A stretch of 64,000 bases of DNA from Curvularia clavata. Its lineage: Eukaryota. Below, piece by piece: positions 1,340 through 12,626 of this stretch (the stretch's first letter is position 1; each line of letters begins with the position of its first letter). Under the pieces are notes generated by a model. The model worked only from the letters and a program-made list of their open reading frames with translations, was not told where the DNA came from and searched no databases. The stretch spans positions 3,906,001-3,970,000 of the forward strand of contig CP089277.1 in the NCBI GenBank assembly GCA_023920165.1, read 5' to 3'. The translations under genes were made by a program, and so were the position numbers.

Positions 1340-2940
1340 GTACCGCTAAATCGAGAGCCTCCTAGGAGAAGGAGACATTGATCATCCTATAAGGTGTCAA
1401 GGGAAGAAGACCAATCCCAGACTACCAAATACCTAGCAAGTAGAAGCACTGCTCTAGTAGCGGTTACTCGGTTGATCAACTGCCGTTGAGGAAAGAACAA
1501 GTTAACCAGAAAGAGTAATCCAACATAGCGGAAACACGATCATGTCGTTAATACGGATGAACAGGGATGATGATGCTCAGCTTGGGGCATCATTGAGACA
1601 CTATAGGTGTCTTATTTATTCTCTGCACTGACAAATCCCACAGCTAACACTCGCGTTTGTATTTCTGCTTGATGTATGGGCACCTTACAGGAAAAGCTGT
1701 ATATCTATGATCCCCTATTCTGACCGGCGTATTCTTTCCGCCCAGATAAAGGAGAAATAGAGGGAAGAAGCAACCAAGCCTTGGCAAGCCACATTCGCTA
1801 GACGGGTGCAATCACCGCCACAACACGGTCCCGCCTCCCAAGAAATCGCCAAGTGGGGGAACAAATGAGTCGTAGAAGAGCGAGTAAGCACACGAACAAT
1901 AAGAACCAACAAAAAAGGGACTCGCAACGTTCAGGCACCTCTAGTTCCCTTCCGATGCAACAAAGACACGTAGAAAATAGGGGTTCTTGCCTACCGACGG
2001 TTGCGGAGCCGAAGTGTAACAGCACCGTTGAATCGCTCATCCCTGCCCTTTCCTCCGCTACAAAGATAGGACAAGGGGTCAATGACTACGCCACGGTTGC
2101 CCAGAGCGGCCACTTGGCTAACGGAGCGGGCGAGGACACGCATGTGTCGGCAGCCGAAGCTACGGGACAAGATGTTGAATGCCGCCGAGAAAATCATCAA
2201 TTCCGAATCGGAATCGAAAGGGGAGCAAGCATTGTGCAAGAATAGATAGAAATCCTATATTTGCCAACTGAATGCTGACGTGCGGTCAAACTCGCCCTGT
2301 ACTACAGTACTAAACGGCCCCCCACAAGCACCGCTACCTACTATTCTCGTCACCAACATTACATGTCACCAGCCACACCCCGCCTTACTTACCCGGTCGA
2401 TCCATTCCTATCCTGCATGTCCAGCCTGGGCCGCCAGTTCCGCCTCCAGCCACACAGAGCAGTACCAAGGCGGAAAACCCTGGTACCAGCACAAGACCTG
2501 TCCCAGTCCCGCAGCCTGTACGCAATATCGCCAAGTGCTGCTACCGCATGCAATCTAGTCTAGCGTGTCCTATAACCTATTCCCGGGAGACATGCAGCAA
2601 GAGAACCAGGAGCGGAACACGCCGCAGCGGCTAGGTAGAGCAGACCCAGAGAATCTCCCCCTCCTCCAAGGCTAGTAAACAGATGCCTAGCTAAGAAAAG
2701 CGCACATGTGTGCATGCATGGCATAGCGTGTATGGAATTTTTAGCCTTGGCAAGGAATACCCATCCTATGCGTATGCAGTCGAGGTCACAATCTGTGAAG
2801 GACCAAGAGAGTAGTACTGAAATCAGGACCACAATGTAACGAGAATTACATCATCAGGCATAGTAAGACGGCCTCAGCAACGCCAACGTTGCTTTAACGT
2901 AAAAAGTCGGACAAGACTAGCTCATAAAGCATAACGTGAA
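1340..2940 (+). pseudogene. possible decayed coding relic, boundaries approximate
   Basis: Protein-like reading segments are broken by TAG/TAA where Gln would fit: IESLLGEGDIDH..NT*QVEALL**RL, ILSAQIKEK*REEATKPW, Pro-rich QPGPPVPPPATQSSTK..RSG*VEQ. The frame changes between segments. No family recognised. Confidence 0.25.
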
Positions 2941-3617
2941 AACCATACAATTCTATTAGGACACTGTTTCTTTCAACTGAATGGCTCTTAGACCTGTTCA
3001 CTCTCGTGCCGAAAAGTCTGATCTCATCAATCTACCGCATTCGTGGACTTACTTGAAACACAACGGCCAGAATGACCGACTCTGGTGATTAGGTGGTACC
3101 GGTGTACCCTTCTGCTTCGGCTCCGCCCGAGCCACACCATTCTTTTTACCTACCAAGGGCTTCACCGGTTGCTTCGTCTTCGGAACACCCGATTCTAACT
3201 GTTGTCAGTTCCGGTAACTCTTACCAGCGATAGAATTTCCTCTTCGTCTTGAAGCCGACGAGTAATTAGCCAGGGAGCGACCAGAGTTTGATCATCTCAG
3301 CTATAGACTTCATCTCATGAGCTCCTTGACTTTGCGTAGACTTGGTATGCAGACCTCCCGTTCGGGTCGAGTGCGAGATCTGCTTCCGGAGGAATAACAA
3401 AGCCACAAACCCACCTTTTAGCATAGAGAGATCGTGTGCAAAGTGAGAGCGGTGTACAACTTCGTCTAGTTACGCCAACCGCGGGGCCGAGTTCAGAGTA
3501 GATCACTTATCACAGAGATAAATGCGACGTCTATACATTCAGCTCTGCAGCATCTTGTCTACCACCAATCCTTGCCTACATCTCTTTTTCCCTATACTTA
3601 CATACACCGACGTTACA

Positions 3618-4167
3618 ATGCAGCTGTCACTCTTCGCCCTCCTCGCCCTCATTGGCACTTCAGCAGCCCAGGTGGTAGTATGCACTGCTGTTGACGAAGG
3701 CGCATATTGCGTTACAGAGAGTGTAAGTTGCATCAAAAGAAAGCGGGAGAGCAAGTCCATACTAACCTTACTACTAGGGAAAACTAGGCAAGTGTGTAAG
3801 TGCAGACTACCCAGAAGAGTAACACATCCAAAAAGCTAACATGAAGCCATAGGACGTACGTATCTCCGCAACTCAACGAACACAGCTAGCACCAGGCTAA
3901 CTAAAGCGCTACCTGCGCATACTCGAACAGGCAGTATGTACCTCTCGCATCTCAATTGACGTTGCAGTGATCATTAGACTAACCAATACGCTTCCACTTG
4001 TAGGACAAAGTAAGCATTTCCCTGACTTGGTTAATGAAGCCGTTGAACTTGGAGAAAACACCATACTAATCAAAGCGCCTGCTTGTGCGTGCTGGAATAG
4101 TTTGTGAGTACTTGGACATGGTCTAAAGTGAGATTGGTCTAACGACTTCTAGTGCGTGGCCAGTTAG
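3618..4167 (+). CDS. micro-exon gene for a small secreted cysteine-rich peptide (50 aa: MQLSLFALLALIGTSAAQVVVCTAVDEGAYCVTESGKLGKCDADKFCVAS)
   Basis: Exons 3618-3722, 3778-3795, 3853-3855, 3931-3933, 4004-4009, 4101-4103, 4153-4167. Six introns have consensus donors (GTAAGT, GTAAGT, GTACGT, GTATGT, GTAAGC, GTGAGT), CTAAY branch sites and YAG acceptors. All are phase 0. The product has a signal peptide ending SAA|Q, four Cys and stop TAG 4165-4167. Confidence 0.8.
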
Positions 4168-5655
4168 AGACTTTACCGCCTATCTACCCAAGAAATGTCC
4201 CGGATGGAAAAGATCACAGGCTCTTTACGGGGGGATTGAAGCTCGTCCGACTAGGCTAGGAGTGTGAGAAGCTGTGTATGAGGACGAGAATAATCAGATG
4301 TTGATATGCTTGTTTTCTGTCCACTTTACCGGCATTTGGAGGAGAGTTGGAGAGGGTTACGTAGCAAGGCGCGGTATTCTGCTACCAGTATAAAAATACA
4401 TTCTAATCGCCCCAACGCGGTACCTTGTGTAGCCACATGTGCTAAGAAGAGGAAACACCGCAGACGCAGACGCTGTGCCTCTGTCTTCTTACCTGCTTGC
4501 ACACCGTATATATAGTACTCACCGCAAGCTTACGGCCATCCTATCTTACCCTCGATACCCCTACCACCCATGCACCCCTTCATCCCGAACCTTAACCCGC
4601 CAGCCGCACATAAGCTGACCTCATCCACATTTTGACTTCCCGCTCGACCCCTACCCACTCGTCCTAAATTAATCTCCCATCTAATATGTAATCAGTGGGC
4701 CAACAAGCATGGCCGAGCAAAACCGTCCAGCAAGCCAAACAAGGGTACGTGCATCGCGAAGGAACGTATCTAGACAAAAAGAGGTTGACAAGGGTACGTT
4801 GTGGATGTGTGTGGGGGTGTCCATACTACCCATACCTACGTCATTAAGCATGCACTTGCGGGAGGTGTTGCCAAAAACCATGTTTTTTTTTCCACTCTGC
4901 TCCAGCGGGATCTTTCGTAGTTGGATTCTTGGCCGAGGCATTTCTGCTAAAATCCGTGCATATGCCGGTATTGAATAAGTTTTATTTTATGCAAAAAGAC
5001 GTAATGACTCTCTCTCTGTTTTGGTTGACTTGTTGTGTAGCCGCTCTCTCGGGAATAAAACTACGATTCTGCCGCGTGACTGGACAACAGACCCGCCCGT
5101 GTTTAGCGCAATTTTTTTCCCGCTACGTATCTCCACGTTGGCTGGGGAAGAAAGCGAGATTAAGAAAACAGGGTTGGTTAGTGACCCGGAATGGTAGAAG
5201 CAAACAGTATGAATGACATCATATCACCAAGCCCATTCAAACACATGGACAACCGTTGGATTCAATGTTTTGATTTTGGTTGGAAATTAATAGTTTGGCG
5301 GGTTTTGTTCGAACGCGCTTTTTCTACATACAGGAGTGTGCTGTGCCGATCGTTCTGAGATGCAGGCAAGCAAACGGTTTGCTCCATCTAGGTTCGCATT
5401 GCATCTGATGTTGTTTGTCAACTCCTGTTTAGTCCAAATGAAAAACTCCATGAAAATGCAAATAAGACTGGTATCCGCCGATAATTGGAAAAAGACCCCA
5501 AACAAAAGAAATCGTTACCCTGAACAAAAAGAAAAGAACAACAGAAAAAAGTATCTTGGAGATGGGACCGGACCGCTGCCGGAGGTTCTCATTTGTTTCT
5601 CCGGGGCGTGGTTCCGTGGTTGTTGATAGTTGTTTGATAAATCGTGCATGGCTGC

Positions 5656-7095
5656 TTAGGCCATGTTTGCGGCGCCGTGCTTCTCGTCCTCATTCTTCTC
5701 AAACATGGTATCCTCCAGCCACTTGGTAGCTTTGGCGCACTGTGCGTCGACATAAGTGGTCCAGAGATGGGCAATGGTGTACTCGACGACGAAAAAGAGG
5801 GGAATGGCAATTGTCCAGACGAGCCAGTTGGTGGTCCTGGGAATATAGTGTTGAATAGCCTCGCCTTGGCCGTCCTTTGGCTCCTCAACGTAGTAGGGCG
5901 CGGTGCTGAATCCGTAGATCAATCGTGCAAGGCCAACCTTCATGACCGTTCCGTGCGTGAGGTAAACGGCAAAGCTGTTGCGACCGACCCACATGAAGAG
6001 CTTGTTGGAGAAGATGCTCTGGAGAGAAGGCGACAGCCAGATGCCAGTGACCATGAGATCCCATCCGATGGCGGTCCAGCGCTTGGGGTAGCTTGCCGCG
6101 CCTTGGGGAATGATGTAGTCTCCAATGTTTTTGAGCTGGACAGACCAGGTAGCCCACTCCCAGTGCTCTCCGGGGTAGCACGCCACATACCAGCCGAGGA
6201 TGATGAGGAAAGCTGTAGCAAATCGGCGGGCCTTGACGCGGGAGTTGATGAAGTCGCGGAAGCCCCTCTCGGATCCGACGTCGCAGAGGATGACACCGTA
6301 AAGGAATTGGCACTCAAAGGTTTCTACCACATGTTAGCCGAAAATTGGGTGTTTTGACAGGTGTGACATACCCTTCTCGGGGCTTGTGCGCATCCAGTAC
6401 CAGAGGAACAAGACGACACAGGTGAAAAGGCGCATGCGGAACTTCATGAAAACGGTGGCGAACAAGAGGATGTATATGAGAAAGGCACCCTGAAGCAGAG
6501 GCAGGAGAGCCCATTGGTGATCGTCGTATTCGTTGTTGGAACCAGACCAGGAGCCCTGGAAGTTCCTGATCAATCGTGGGATTTCGGTGTCGAGGCCGCC
6601 AATGTTGTGAGGAACGGAGCGGCGGAACCAGTGCGAGTCACTGAGGTGGGCGATTTCAAAAGCGCCTAGCTGAGCAAAGGTCCAGGCAATAACGAGGGCA
6701 ATGGTGGCGGGCATGATCAATCGAGGTGGGCGGCGGAAGGCCGACTTGCCCAGTGTCTCCAAGGCGGCCGGGATGTTTCCAGACTTTGCCTGTCGGAGAG
6801 GCTTGATGGCGCAAACATAGCCAGTGAGGAAGGCGAACATGGTTACGCCGATACGGCCTTGGAAAGGCAAGCGAATAAAGGGCAGTTGAAGCAATTGGGG
6901 AGCTGCGTTCTCGCTATCGCGCGGCGACCAGAGGCTGTAGTCCCATGCCCGGCACAAGTGGGTTACGACGACCCAGAAGGAGGCTACACCACGAACACCC
7001 TGGAAATGGTTAGATGTGAGAAGAATGGGGACGATAAGATTAGGTCGACTGCGTACCTCTACCCAGGTGACATTCTGGCGACCACCCGACGACAT
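5656..7095 (-). CDS. acyltransferase 3 family multi-pass membrane O-acyltransferase
   Basis: N-terminal 'WVEGVRGVASFWVVVTH' (DGLRG-type motif), 'FAFLTGYV', 'RRPPRL', C-terminal 'GRNSFAVYLTH'. Introns 7000-7056 and 6324-6371 join ORFs 6334..7194 and 5656..6330. An upstream in-frame Met (7188/7194) is possible. Confidence 0.9.
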
Positions 7096-8387
7096 CTTGC
7101 CTGGACCGGCGGCAGGCTCTAAGGGAGTTGCAAGGCTGGAGATGGTGGCGCGAGCGAGCGACAACGGTGCCTTTGTGATCAAAGACATGTGCATGCAGAA
7201 GATTGCTGGGGGTGCTCAGCGAAGGTAAGGAAACAAGGATGGAAAAGTAGGAAAGAAACAAGAGCGATTGGAAGCAACTATAGCAGCTGCATTGGAGTGG
7301 GTTAAAGTTGGACCAAGAAGGAAGTTAAGGCATCATCGGGGTGCAAAGCAAGTTGGCATGGGCAAAGACGGCTTCTCGGATGGGGCGTCTTGGCGGGATA
7401 TCGAAGTGTGTCGAGCCAGGCCCCAGTGTAATTGGCTGTGGGTTGAAAGGGGGAACAAGCGCCGATTGTGCATGGGGGGCCGCGTCATAATGCTCGGCGG
7501 GTGTTGAAAGGCGTCCCCACCGGTTTCAGGGCATGGAAGCTTGGCAATCAACAGCCGCATGGACAGGACAGGCTGTGGCGGTGATGCGGTCAAATCAATC
7601 TGTCCCACACAAGTTGCCTTCTGGCGGAGCGGTGCCGAGTTCCGCTCAGCCCAAGCACGACGGCGTGGCGGGCCTCTTGGACGCCCCGTGCTGCTATGTG
7701 TGTGGGATGGATGTTGGTGTGCTTGGAGTGCCATTGTGTGCATGCATGCAGCCTGTCATGTGGCGCAAAGACGACGCGGTTGAGCCACATGAGGCCTGAG
7801 TAGGGGCGGGATCGTCGACCACATTAGCCAGTTGCCGCTGTTTGATGTGTATCGAGGCCGCGCAATGGTGGGTGTAGATAGATGGCCCTGTTCCCCCGGA
7901 GGACGAGGCGTACGTGTACACGGGCACGCAACTGTCGACGCAGCCCGTCGACGCGTTGTCGTTGAAATGAGAAAAAGGGTGAGAGAAATGAGGCTCTGCA
8001 GAATGCATGCGGGTGCGGCTCTTGCCTTGCTCTTGGCCTTGGAAGCAGTAGGCGCGCCCTTGGCCCCCCACCTGCCAACAACAACTGCAGTCGCACCTTC
8101 CCTCCAGCCTCCCAGTGGCGCGCCCTAGCTTAGCCCGGCGCCACAACCACACGACCACAACACAACAGACCACACCGCACCAGACGACGCACCATTTACT
8201 CGCAATGTGCTAAACACGTCCACTTCGCCCAAGCAATCCAGCAATACCATGTCTCCGCCGTGTCCTTGGCACCATCAGCCCTGATGTCATTGCGTTGCTT
8301 TGCATTGCTTGCTTTCTTGCTTATCTTCTCCCAGCCCAACTACAGCCTCAGCTACGCAAAGCTACTCTACATTGGCCGCTGCATGCC

Positions 8388-9587
8388 CTAGTGATTCTTC
8401 TCAACAATCTCCTTGGCAAAGGCTGCAAAGTCGCGCCTCTCGTCCACCTTCTCCCACAGATTCGGTTGCGTAAACACCGCCAGCGTGTTCCTAGCCACCT
8501 GACCTCCCCCAGCCCCCGCTGCAGCGCCCCGCACAAAGTGAGGTACTGCCTTGAATTTGCCCTTGGTGATAATCTCCAGCGCCTCGCCAGTTTGGAACGC
8601 CAGACAGTCGCGCGGAATGCTGACCTTGGTCACGGCTCCTGTGCGCGAGTGGATGTAGAGACCCGCTTTCGGGTCTGGGGATCGCTCCAGTTCCTCGAGC
8701 GGTGCAAAGGATGCGCCCGTCTGCGGCGGATTCGCAGCTTCATCCACAAACATGGCCGATGTCAGCCCGGTCAGGCACCCATGGTCAAGGTGTGTAGCAC
8801 ACCAGTCATCCTCGTCCCCGCTAGAAATTTCCGACTCGGACGCAGGACTGGGGAAGTAATGTAACAGTCGCGCCTTGGTCGACACGCTCGTCTTGACTAC
8901 ATGCTCGAGGTACCCCCTCTGGTAGCCCTCAATGTTGGCTTCGGCGTACTTGTCGCATGCTCGGGCTACCAGCGCAGCAATGTCGATAATCAGCGTGCAG
9001 AGCTCGCGGAAAGTCTCTTCGAAGCCTGGCAGCAGATGCTCCGAGGGCCACACGTTAGGTGCCGTGTACTCTGGGAATGAGGGGTATTTCTCGGCCACTG
9101 CCTTTTGCTGCTGCTCAAACCCAGGCGCGCAGTTCACGTAGTAGGAGCCTTTGAGCGTGTCATATTTGCCATCTTTCAACGTCTCTTTGCCGCATGACCA
9201 TCCAACCAGCCACTTGGACGCGGGAGACTCAAGTTTTGCTGATATGCGTCAACTCTGCATCGTCAACTCGGCACATGGATGCTTACCCAACTCCTCTTGA
9301 GACAAGTTTCCAAGAGCAGATGCGTATGACAACAGTCTGTGGCGCAGGCCATGGAATTTGGCAGGAAGGTCCTTGACAACAATAATGCCCAAGCTTGCGG
9401 GTCCAAATGCCTCCTCTAGCAATGTGAAGTCGACGTCATCTGCAAATGCCACCATCAGCCATTTTTGTCCCTTGCCTGCGTGCACCTGCAGACACACTAC
9501 AGCCACCAACCACTACTTACTGTTGCGGAGAGCATCGAGTCCGACAGCGACAGCGCTCTGGCTCACTGCAGCGTTAGCGTTGGCCAT
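8388..9587 (-). CDS. 2-oxoglutarate/Fe(II)-dependent dioxygenase (clavaminate synthase/IPNS-like fold)
   Basis: Three exons: MANANAAVSQ.. / ..LEEAFGPASLGIIVVKDLP.. / ..LVGWSCGKETLKDGKYDTLKGSYY... Has HxD (THLDHGCLT), distal His (AVPHFV) and 'RNTLAVF'. Two canonical introns. Confidence 0.9.
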
Positions 9588-9796
9588 GTTTATTGCTCAA
9601 AAGATGCTTAGGATCCGACGACGACGATGCACTACGTCGTTGATTCTGTCACTTTATCGTCCTTCTGTAGCGCACGACTGGGGCTGGCCTGACCTTGGAG
9701 TGCGACCGGCACCTGCCTGATTTGCCCCAGCCTCGGCCATCTCCGATCTCTCAACTCCGACGCCACACCTTACTACCACGACCAAGTACCGCCAAC

Positions 9797-10664
9797 ATGC
9801 CCAAAGCACTCCATTTCAAAGGCGACAAGAAAGTCAAGAAGCGCAGAAAGGTTGCCGAGCCATATGATGCCGACGACGCACACTCGAAGCAGGTCACGAC
9901 CACCGCGCCTGCAGAGGCCGAGAACGACGATTCTTGGGTCAGCGCAGATGTGCCCAGCGACATTTCCGGACCCGTTGTCATAGTTCTCCCAACAGACAAA
10001 CCGGCCTGTCTGGCATGCGACGCAAACGGCAAGGTTTTTGCTAGCGAATTGGAAAATATCATCGAGGGCGACGTTGCGACTGCCGAACCGCATGATGTGC
10101 GTCAGGTCTTTGTCGCGAATCGCGTCGCAGGTACAGAGCAGTTGAGTTTGAAAGGCCATCACGGCAGGTACGACGACAGCCTAAGCATTCGAGGGCCTTG
10201 GCTATTGCATGGCATCTGACTTACTCGTCTCTAGATACCTTAGCTGTGACAAGTACGGTGTCCTGAGTGCCACCGCAACTGCAATCTCTCCCGAAGAGAC
10301 CTTTCTCGCCATTCCCGTCCCTGACAACGCCTCTGCATTTTCGCTGCAAACTGCGCGCGACAAGTTTCTCAGTGTACACGAGTCCAAGGCCGGCCCTGAG
10401 CTCCGCGGCGACGCAGAACATATTGAGTTCCCTACTACCCTCCGTATACGCATGCAGGCGCGCTTCAAGCCGCGCCTCAAAGCAAGCAAGGAAGAAAAGG
10501 CAAACGCCAAGGTTAGCCGCAAGGAGCTGGAAGAACAAATCGGGCGCCGCCTCGATGACGCTGAAGTCAAGAAGCTGCGCAAGGCTAAAGCCGAAGGAAA
10601 CTTTTACGAGACAGCCCTGGATATGAAAGTAAAGTCTAGCCACGACAAGTACGCCAGCATGTGA
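9797..10664 (+). CDS. FRG1: FRG1-like (fascin/actin-crosslinking fold) nuclear protein
   Basis: MPKALHFKGDKKVKKRRK N-terminus, 'AEPHDVRQVFVA', 'LKGHHGRYLSCDKYG' across one intron, 'RIRMQARFKP', and C-terminal 'LDMKVKSSHDKYA'. Confidence 0.9.
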
Positions 10665-11474: not shown

Positions 11475-12626
11475 CTAAAACTTATACACCTGATCCTTGC
11501 TATAACCCAGCTCCTTCAGGTAGCCCTCAAGCTCGCCCTGATCCGAGGGGCTCTTCTTACCACCGCTAATCGCCTTGTACATGCCCGGGGGACCGCAAAC
11601 AAACAGCTTAATCTTCTCTCCTTCCTTTGGCTCTGGCAGCACCGTCTTGAGCAGCTCCTTTGTAATGTAGCCCTTTCCGCCCTGCCACTGCTCAGGCGGG
11701 TTATCCAGGACGTAAAAGGCGCGGAAGCGCTGAGGGTACGTGTTCTCTAGTTCTTCAAACTCGCGCTTGAGCAGGATGTCTTGTTCCGAGACGTTGCCGT
11801 AGACAAGCGTGACTTTGGTCTTGTCCTCTGGGTTGCGGAAAATGGCGCGTGCCGTTTGCCACATGGGTGTGATGCCAGTGCCGCCGGCAATCAGAGCAAT
11901 GTGCTCGAACTTGTTGGGTTGCCATTGGAATTTGGGAATGGGGCCCTTGATGTCCAGGCGCTGGCCGGGCTCCATGCTGTGCATGTGCTCAGACATGGGG
12001 CCGTTGGGGTACGCCTTGATGATGAAATCTACGGTGCCCTTTTGGTCGACGTCGCTGACGGGAGTGTAGGGTCGGATGACGGGTTTCTGCATCTCGGGGC
12101 CCTTGTACTTGGTGATGACGGCAGCTAGATGGAATTAGTATGTCTTCAAACAATCGTTCCCTATAGACATACAAGCTACAGGCAGGCCGCTCTCCATGTC
12201 TTCCTCGGGAAGCTTAAAGGTAAGCTTCTTGGTGTTGTGGTTGATGACCTCAGACTTGTCCAGCACAAGCGACAAGAAACCTTGGTCTCCTCCAGTGAAT
12301 GCCTTCTTAGCAGCGGCGCCGGTCGAAGAAGGGATCTTGTTGGCCTCCTCGGACGGCGGCGCTCGACCCTGCTGTCCTGATGGCGAATCACCTCCCCTCA
12401 AGAACAGATAAGCGCCAGAGAGACCAGCAGCAGCAATTCCTGTGTACAAAACACCATTGTTACCACCGCTCTTGGGCTGCTCAGATGCATATCGGCGGAC
12501 TTGCTATTCCCACACGTCAGTATTTGTCCGGCGACTTGGAAGATTTGTAATGCGCAGAACAATGAGAAAGTTATCGCGTACCTGGTGCAGCGTCCTGGCC
12601 GGGCGGAATACCTGTCTGGCAAACAT
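11475..12626 (-). CDS. MCR1: mitochondrial NADH-cytochrome b5 reductase 2
   Basis: Presequence [17 protein letters not shown] segment, FAD motif RPYTP, NADH motifs AGGTGITPM and CGPPGM, C-terminal VYKF. Two introns. Confidence 0.95.

Follow-up and report, generated by a model that had tools for sequence, protein, structure and literature searches.

A putative secreted four-cysteine peptide gene of a Pleosporales fungus, with a coding region that appears to be assembled across a run of single-codon exons

We have analysed a 64-kb stretch of DNA (referred to below as the window, within which all positions are counted) and describe here a locus on its + strand at which a small peptide appears to be encoded in seven exons, three of them one codon in length. 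We rebuilt the model from the lengths given in a preliminary description of this DNA, which had proposed a hidden gene with exactly this splicing, and found positions, lengths of exons and introns and signals for splicing all to agree with it; the rebuilt model, together with a joined contig from sequencing run X9 that is described later, upholds that proposal. The coding part of exon 1 (3618..3722, 105 nt) is covered by X9 record 12, which has 0 differing letters there, and contains a signal-peptide-like segment of 17 aa (3618-3668), the predicted first codon of the mature peptide (Gln, at 3669) and the codons for Cys1 and Cys2. Intron 1 (3723..3777, 55 nt; GTAAGT..TACTAAC..TAG) follows, and the joint of 3722 to 3778 lies inside X9 record 12. 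Exon 2 (3778..3795, 18 nt) supplies 6 codons, the last of which specifies Cys3, and was placed from the sequence and the X9 contig. The next four exons are exon 3 (GAC; 3853..3855, 3 nt), which is present in its predicted order in the loose end of the X9 contig, and exon 4 (GCA; 3931..3933, 3 nt), exon 5 (GACAAA; 4004..4009, 6 nt) and exon 6 (TTT; 4101..4103, 3 nt), each of which was placed from the sequence and the X9 contig. The introns around them, assigned from the sequence, are intron 2 (3796..3852, 57 nt; GTAAGT..GCTAAC..TAG), intron 3 (3856..3930, 75 nt; GTACGT..GGCTAAC..CAG), intron 4 (3934..4003, 70 nt; GTATGT..GACTAAC..TAG), intron 5 (4010..4100, 91 nt; GTAAGC..TACTAAT..TAG) and intron 6 (4104..4152, 49 nt; GTGAGT..GTCTAAC..TAG). 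The coding part of exon 7 (4153..4167, 15 nt) consists of the Cys4 codon, three more codons and the stop codon TAG, and the loose end of the X9 contig reaches 4165.

In this model every exon length is a multiple of 3 and all six introns are in phase 0. The donors are GTAAGT, GTACGT, GTATGT, GTAAGC or GTGAGT, the acceptors are TAG or CAG, and a branch motif, CTAAC or CTAAT, is found in every intron at 9-30 nt before the intron end. The joined coding sequence of 153 nt is open from the start codon, ATG 3618 (in the context ACAATG), through the stop codon ending at 4167, which gives an intron density of one per 25 coding nt. The 5' untranslated region, in the part covered by the spliced contig, extends from 3585, where X9 record 12 begins, to 3617; part of the 3' untranslated region lies at 4168..4340, with AATAAT at 4289, and X9 record 13 covers 4174-4340 of it with 0 other letters. 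These outer limits are those of contigs, which cannot show where a transcript starts or ends. A motif scan also found a TATA-like ATAAAT at 3518..3523 on the + strand, about 65 nt upstream of 3585, which may have a promoter role. An in-frame ATG at 3522-3524 (+), 96 nt upstream of 3618, overlaps this element and would lie outside an mRNA starting near 3585; were transcription to begin further upstream, initiation at ATG 3522 would add 32 residues and place the hydrophobic stretch internally.

The peptide gene stands alone in the interval from about 2500 to 5600, where no long open frame with a Pfam match was found, and this gap contrasts with the gene-dense rest of the first 14 kb. Pfam matches beyond the gap correspond to an Acyl_transf_3 gene (5656-7215, - strand), a weak 2OG-Fe(II) oxygenase-like match (8388-9248, - strand), an FRG1-like gene (9671-10664, + strand) and a cytochrome b5 reductase gene (11475-12503, - strand). 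The frame of the Acyl_transf_3 gene is in two parts, on either side of a 48-nt intron at 6324-6371 (GTATGT..GGCTAAC..TAG). The cytochrome b5 reductase gene has a 48-nt intron at 12125-12172 (GTATGT..TACTAAT..TAG), removal of which leaves one stop in 327 codons, and the introns of these conserved neighbours are of the same style as those of the peptide gene. Within the gap, at 5004-5216 on the + strand, there is also a 70-codon open frame, basic in composition and with 4 Cys and a leader-like hydrophobic N-terminus, whose status as a gene is without support; 6 of its first 8 residues are the same as at the start of the peptide leader, a resemblance that tblastn places at chance level (E = 30).

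A protein search with the cytochrome b5 reductase returned 2,965 proteins at E <= 1e-30 among 3,595 candidates. Among the 120 matches listed, the best was a JGI protein with 94% identity and none reached 100%; the best named ones, at 88-91%, were from Stagonosporopsis, Neodidymelliopsis, Plenodomus, Didymella, Coniothyrium and Parastagonospora, all of which we take to be Pleosporales. The fungal origin that had been proposed for this DNA is borne out by these matches.

Of the 15 public sequencing runs listed for the locus, four (X9, X12, X13 and X14) were aligned as contigs over positions 3450-4400. We observed the unspliced locus in parts of X12, where a loose end is adapter-like, and in X14, and X13 covered only 4094-4400, again unspliced. 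Record 12 of X9 is one 187-nt contig of depth 4.4 in which 3585-3722 is joined directly to 3778-3796 and is followed by 27 more letters. These trailing letters run consecutively through exons 3, 4, 5 and 6 into the beginning of exon 7, just as in the joined coding sequence; the 27-letter string is contiguous in that sequence after exon 2 and nowhere contiguous in the window. The preliminary description had suggested that its model be checked by a search of reads for a junction string, and the string is present, in this one contig of one run. The coverage by X9 is limited to 3585-3722, 3778-3796 and 4174-4340, with 100% identity in each, and its depth is 0 in each bin that lies wholly inside an intron. 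Its longest record has 7,259 letters, as compared with 40,462-112,880 letters in the three DNA-like runs X12, X13 and X14. By these measures X9 behaves like a transcriptome, with an RNA label that is a guess, none of the 15 listed runs being on record as RNA, and with an organism label that differs from the one common to the eight best holders. Logan contigs are built from 31-letter words. With words of this length, single words span several of the junctions, so that the reads themselves would have to carry them. It should be noted that contigs cannot reveal minor isoforms or strand. No alternative splicing was seen in the sole transcript contig, which has all of the exons, contigs being a form of data that drops rare variants.

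To gauge the role of chance, we scanned both strands of the window for a loose intron pattern of donor, branch and acceptor, a single match to which is no evidence of an intron. The pattern matched 35 times on the + strand and 33 times on the - strand. Mononucleotide shuffles gave 48.9 +/- 8.9 matches (n=200), so that the real window is the poorer in such matches, and outside real introns there seems to be a depletion of intron-like sets of signals. Eight of the 35 + strand matches fall within the 550 nt of the peptide gene, a count that includes two overlapping alternative-donor versions, and the matches of the gene form a chain of 6 in which each gap is a multiple of 3. The longest chain in each of 500 shuffles was 1 (220 shuffles), 2 (268) or 3 (12), and never 6; when in-frame gaps were required, one chain of 3 was obtained in the 500 shuffles. 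On neither strand of the window was there a second chain, even of two units. Since the shuffles reach a chain of 3 at most, and X9 holds the spliced form, we reject a chance arrangement, and the earlier argument that six consecutive in-frame intron sets are unlikely to arise by chance is sustained.

The six introns were also compared with each other. Introns 3 and 4 are alike over their first 22 nt, of which 19 are identical, and introns 3 and 5 over their last 42 nt, of which 31 are identical; the local score was 22 in either case, just above 21, the highest of the 165 scores obtained with 55 control sequences, which were intron-like and drawn from the window. Introns 4 and 5 gave a local score of only 13, and global identities among the introns (52-63%) were within the control range (mean 53%, maximum 69%). 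At most these sequence likenesses hint that local duplication of a unit made up of an intron and a codon may have enlarged part of the array. Introner-like elements of Dothideomycetes occur as many near-identical intron copies across a genome and have unusually stable secondary structure. None of the six introns has a further copy in the 64-kb window, where other matches are at best of 11-16 nt with E >= 0.25, and the minimum free energy z-scores of the six introns ranged from -1.39 to +2.37, values that do not indicate unusually stable folding. With neither copies nor unusual folding, we reject, within what the window can show, an origin from introner-like elements.

Run X14 carries two haplotypes over 3537-3929, one of which is that of the window and the other diverged. 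The diverged haplotype is about 6% different in the introns and more so in the 5' untranslated region, and the X14 sample contains either two strains or two close species. Between 3717 and 3929 we observed 11 substitutions and a 2-base insertion, all in introns 1-3 and none in exons 2-3. Expressed by position, changes affect 0 of 27 exon positions and 12 of 186 intron positions, a difference that is not significant, about 1.5 exon changes being expected. Three of the substitutions fall in splice signals and leave each consensus intact: 3850 T>C in intron 2 changes TAG to CAG and keeps a YAG acceptor, 3859 C>T in intron 3 changes GTACGT to GTATGT and keeps the donor consensus, and 3899 A>G, also in intron 3, changes CTAAC to CTGAC and keeps the branch consensus. 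The 2-base insertion is located in intron 1, where it would wreck any read-through frame. On the 5' side, the diverged contig departs from the window after codon 11, as a loose end behind 3650; by hand translation this loose end is in frame, with a leader two codons longer that rejoins the known sequence at Gln-Val. Length differences that break the frame within an intron but preserve it in coding sequence are what a coding gene would be expected to show, and they are represented here by one case of each.

Translation of the joined frame predicts a precursor of 50 aa, composed of a 17-aa signal-peptide-like leader and a 33-aa mature peptide. The leader averages 2.91 on the Kyte-Doolittle scale over residues 3-12, has S at -3 and A at -1, and is followed by Gln at +1; it is without a basic residue, and its likeness to a signal peptide was judged by inspection. 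The predicted mature peptide has a mass of 3,397 Da, a pI of 4.44 and a net charge of -2.3 at pH 7, with 5 acidic and 3 basic residues. Its Cys residues are at mature positions 5, 14, 24 and 30, a spacing of 8/9/5. Thus, the signal-peptide-like N-terminus (by the same inspection) and the four-Cys pattern that had been read from this locus were both recovered on the joined peptide, while the suggestion that the product is antimicrobial-like is weakened by its charge and pI. The peptide has the leader (by inspection), the small mature size and the several Cys by which small secreted cysteine-rich proteins and candidate effectors are recognized, and does not have the net positive charge of cationic cysteine-stabilised antimicrobial peptides. 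The Cys spacing is, we presume, loosely reminiscent of RALF peptides; the mature peptide is acidic, and we make nothing of the likeness.

The position of the exon boundaries relative to the Cys codons is exact. The Cys3 codon is the last of exon 2 and the Cys4 codon the first of exon 7, and the four tiny exons between them therefore encode precisely the five-residue loop between Cys3 and Cys4, with D, A, DK and F contributed by exons of 3, 3, 6 and 3 nt, respectively. Loss of any one of exons 3-6, or of all four, would keep the frame, the stop codon and the four Cys. Retention of one intron would lead to an early stop with three Cys in 5 of the 6 cases; for intron 4, there is no stop within the frame examined.

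We searched for relatives of the peptide in several ways. A word-index search with the spliced peptide among proteins of 27-88 aa yielded no candidate. Against 1.84 billion representatives, phmmer with exon 1 as the query produced 1 hit (E 4.4e-4), to six stretches of a 4,612-aa protein that align with query residues 10-30, and this we take as a hydrophobic or repetitive match and not as a relative. There was no usable match in the ESM Atlas, no PDB sequence at E <= 10, and no Pfam family (0) for the exon-1 read-through frame. In tblastn of exon 1 against the window only the self-hit was obtained, the next best match having an E of 0.68, so that no paralogue is seen within the window; and metagenome contigs contained 0 stretches that fit either of two degenerate patterns, drawn up for part of exon 1 and for exon 2 plus its splice sites. 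By the word-index and phmmer searches, then, the expectation that public protein sets hold no matching protein was confirmed, and the proposal that the gene belongs to a family loses ground, there being no paralogue in the window and nothing among the 1.84 billion representatives beyond the one non-credible hit. The gene had also been called unannotated. The peptide is indeed absent from the protein collection, but this carries little weight, since the cytochrome b5 reductase of the window is absent too (best match 94%): without a 100% match for that enzyme the genome seems to have no proteome in the collection, and absence of the peptide says little about its own annotation. It does say something about relatives, in that exon 1 appears to be shared with no annotated protein found.

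Considered together, these observations lead us to put at roughly 80% the probability that the locus is a true nuclear gene, expressed by a fungus of the Pleosporales (Dothideomycetes), that it is spliced as modelled and that it encodes a tiny secreted peptide with four Cys. According to this model, a primary transcript covering at least 3585-4340 would lose six short, canonical phase-0 introns, and the resulting mRNA of about 360 nt would contain the 153-nt reading frame. Intron definition is the mode by which fungi recognize introns. All six introns have a full donor, branch and acceptor set of their own, and each should therefore be removable by itself. Where an acceptor and the donor that follows it are only 3 nt apart, there is no room for two adjacent spliceosomes, and by this argument from geometry the introns would be taken out one after another, in a manner like recursive splicing except that one codon is left per step. 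To judge from its sequence, the product would be a secreted, disulfide-bonded, extracellular peptide, probably with two disulfides in its mature form and possibly with an N-terminal pyroglutamate. Because the peptide is anionic, a role as an effector (directed at a host or at microbes) or as a signalling peptide would be more likely than one as a membrane-active antimicrobial peptide.

Of the other ways in which the locus might be understood, the one to which we give most thought, while holding it to be unlikely, is a regulated skipping of the four tiny exons in combination, by which up to 16 variants of the Cys3-Cys4 loop would be made within a constant Cys frame. The symmetry of all of the internal exons, the harmlessness of skipping one of exons 3-6 or all four to frame, stop codon and Cys count, and the exact fit of the tiny exons to one inter-cysteine loop are what such a system would require, and they match the description of schistosome micro-exon genes (MEGs) in a report on those genes (PMC4350168). 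Were it so, the locus would be an independently evolved fungal counterpart of the schistosome MEGs and, with its tiny exons used alternatively, a new fungal way to vary a secreted peptide. However, the sole transcript contig contains all exons and is unbroken over all junctions, where an abundant second isoform would normally be expected to break a de Bruijn contig, and the signals of all six introns are strong. A defensin-like antimicrobial function for the peptide is to our minds less probable again. The product is small, appears to be secreted and is probably disulfide-bonded, which is in favour of the idea, but its negative net charge (-2.3), pI of 4.44 and excess of acidic over basic residues (5 and 3) speak against this function, as do the number of Cys, four and not six, and the lack of a match in Pfam (exon-1 read-through frame), PDB or the ESM Atlas.

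The remaining two alternatives concern whether there is a peptide, and whether there is splicing, at all. Conceivably the locus is transcribed and spliced as a non-coding RNA, the short frame being incidental and no peptide being made; a frame of only 50 codons for which no homologue was found would fit such an RNA. Yet 5 of the 5 internal exon lengths are multiples of 3, for which the chance is about (1/3)^5, and the frame opens with an ATG in the context ACAATG and a hydrophobic leader (2.91 over residues 3-12) with small residues at -3 and -1, and has an even number of Cys. The X14 relative, moreover, differs by two codons, in frame, in the leader and by a 2-base insertion in intron 1. We regard the non-coding reading as very improbable on these grounds. 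Fainter still is the prospect that the joined form in X9 is DNA, that is, an intron-less genomic copy, processed or ancestral, in the organism from which X9 derives. That the RNA label of X9 is only guessed, and that its organism label (B) is not that of the eight best holders (A), would suit such a copy. On the other hand, the 100% identity of X9 is confined to 3585-3722, 3778-3796 and 4174-4340, and the contigs stop where a transcript would, without flanking or intron DNA; in an assembly whose longest record is 7,259 letters, a retrocopy with identical untranslated regions and no flanks is far-fetched. We accordingly retain the view that the locus is an expressed, spliced gene for a secreted peptide.

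If this gene functions as modelled, a fungal spliceosome is able to join successive single-codon exons, set between introns of 49-91 nt, into a correct message, and the locus offers a compact natural substrate (about 750 nt) for work on the order in which introns are removed when they flank an exon shorter than the spliceosome footprint. It would also be a secreted-peptide gene that is invisible to ORF finders and to standard gene predictors, and by reason of such invisibility the catalogues of small secreted proteins and effector candidates of Dothideomycetes may be systematically incomplete. Small secreted cysteine-rich proteins and effector candidates of Dothideomycetes have a leader, small size and an even Cys count, are without homologues and occupy gene-poor positions. 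The peptide described here has the same features; at 33 aa it stands at the very small end of the range, and it is acidic.

With regard to splicing, several known systems resemble the locus in part. Recursive splicing acts at zero-length exons. The likeness to it, and to fungal stwintrons (spliceosomal twin introns), is that a donor comes almost directly after an acceptor and that removal has to be stepwise; the introns of the peptide gene lie side by side and leave a codon at each step, unlike the nested stwintrons. The human RPS24 gene, according to two reports (PMC12207440, PMC12686416), has three consecutive microexons of 3, 18 and 22 bp, and so resembles the peptide gene in having several microexons in a row, one of them of 3 bp. 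Splicing in the animal case is by exon definition, with long introns and regulated alternative use of the exons, whereas the peptide gene, in a fungus, has introns of 49-91 nt and has been seen only in the form with all exons.

The preliminary description had termed the gene MEG-like. In the published description of schistosome MEGs (PMC4350168), the greater part of these genes' coding region is in micro-exons, variants arise through alternative splicing, and the genes are restricted to platyhelminths. The peptide gene agrees with that account in its symmetric, tiny internal exons (18, 3, 3, 6 and 3 nt) and, going by inspection of its leader, in a small product that looks secreted, and to this extent the term is apt. 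It does not extend to the distribution of coding sequence, of which only 48 of 153 nt (31%) lie outside exon 1 and 105 nt (69%) within it. Alternative splicing is documented for the MEGs, and none was seen here in the one contig, which has all exons and belongs to a form of data that drops rare variants. No sequence similarity to schistosome MEGs was found.

The closest precedents are in the fungi themselves. A long-read annotation of Coprinopsis cinerea includes 89 gene models with an exon of <=3 nt, and 26 of its genes together account for 27 exons of 3 nt (PMC12230235); CYP621A of Fusarium has a 1-nt exon (PMC12940212); and a paper of 2024 (PMC11121469) speaks of functional microexons as not having been described before in filamentous fungi. 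Single 3-nt exons in fungi are thus already known. Our literature searches, which covered listings of papers and few of the subscription journals, turned up no published fungal gene for a secreted peptide in which single-codon exons follow one another. Exons of at most 3 nt between canonical GT..AG introns, and apparently present in mature RNA (the X9 contig), occur in the peptide gene at 3853-3855, 3931-3933 and 4101-4103. The peptide gene is like the published fungal genes in that canonical short introns flank an exon too short for recognition on its own; the published cases are RNA-confirmed, and gene predictors miss such exons or break the models. The published genes have single micro-exons, at most two per gene by the published counts, within ordinary and often conserved enzymes such as P450s, whereas the gene described here has three 3-nt exons and one 6-nt exon in a row, in a 153-nt orphan frame that is predicted to specify a secreted peptide.
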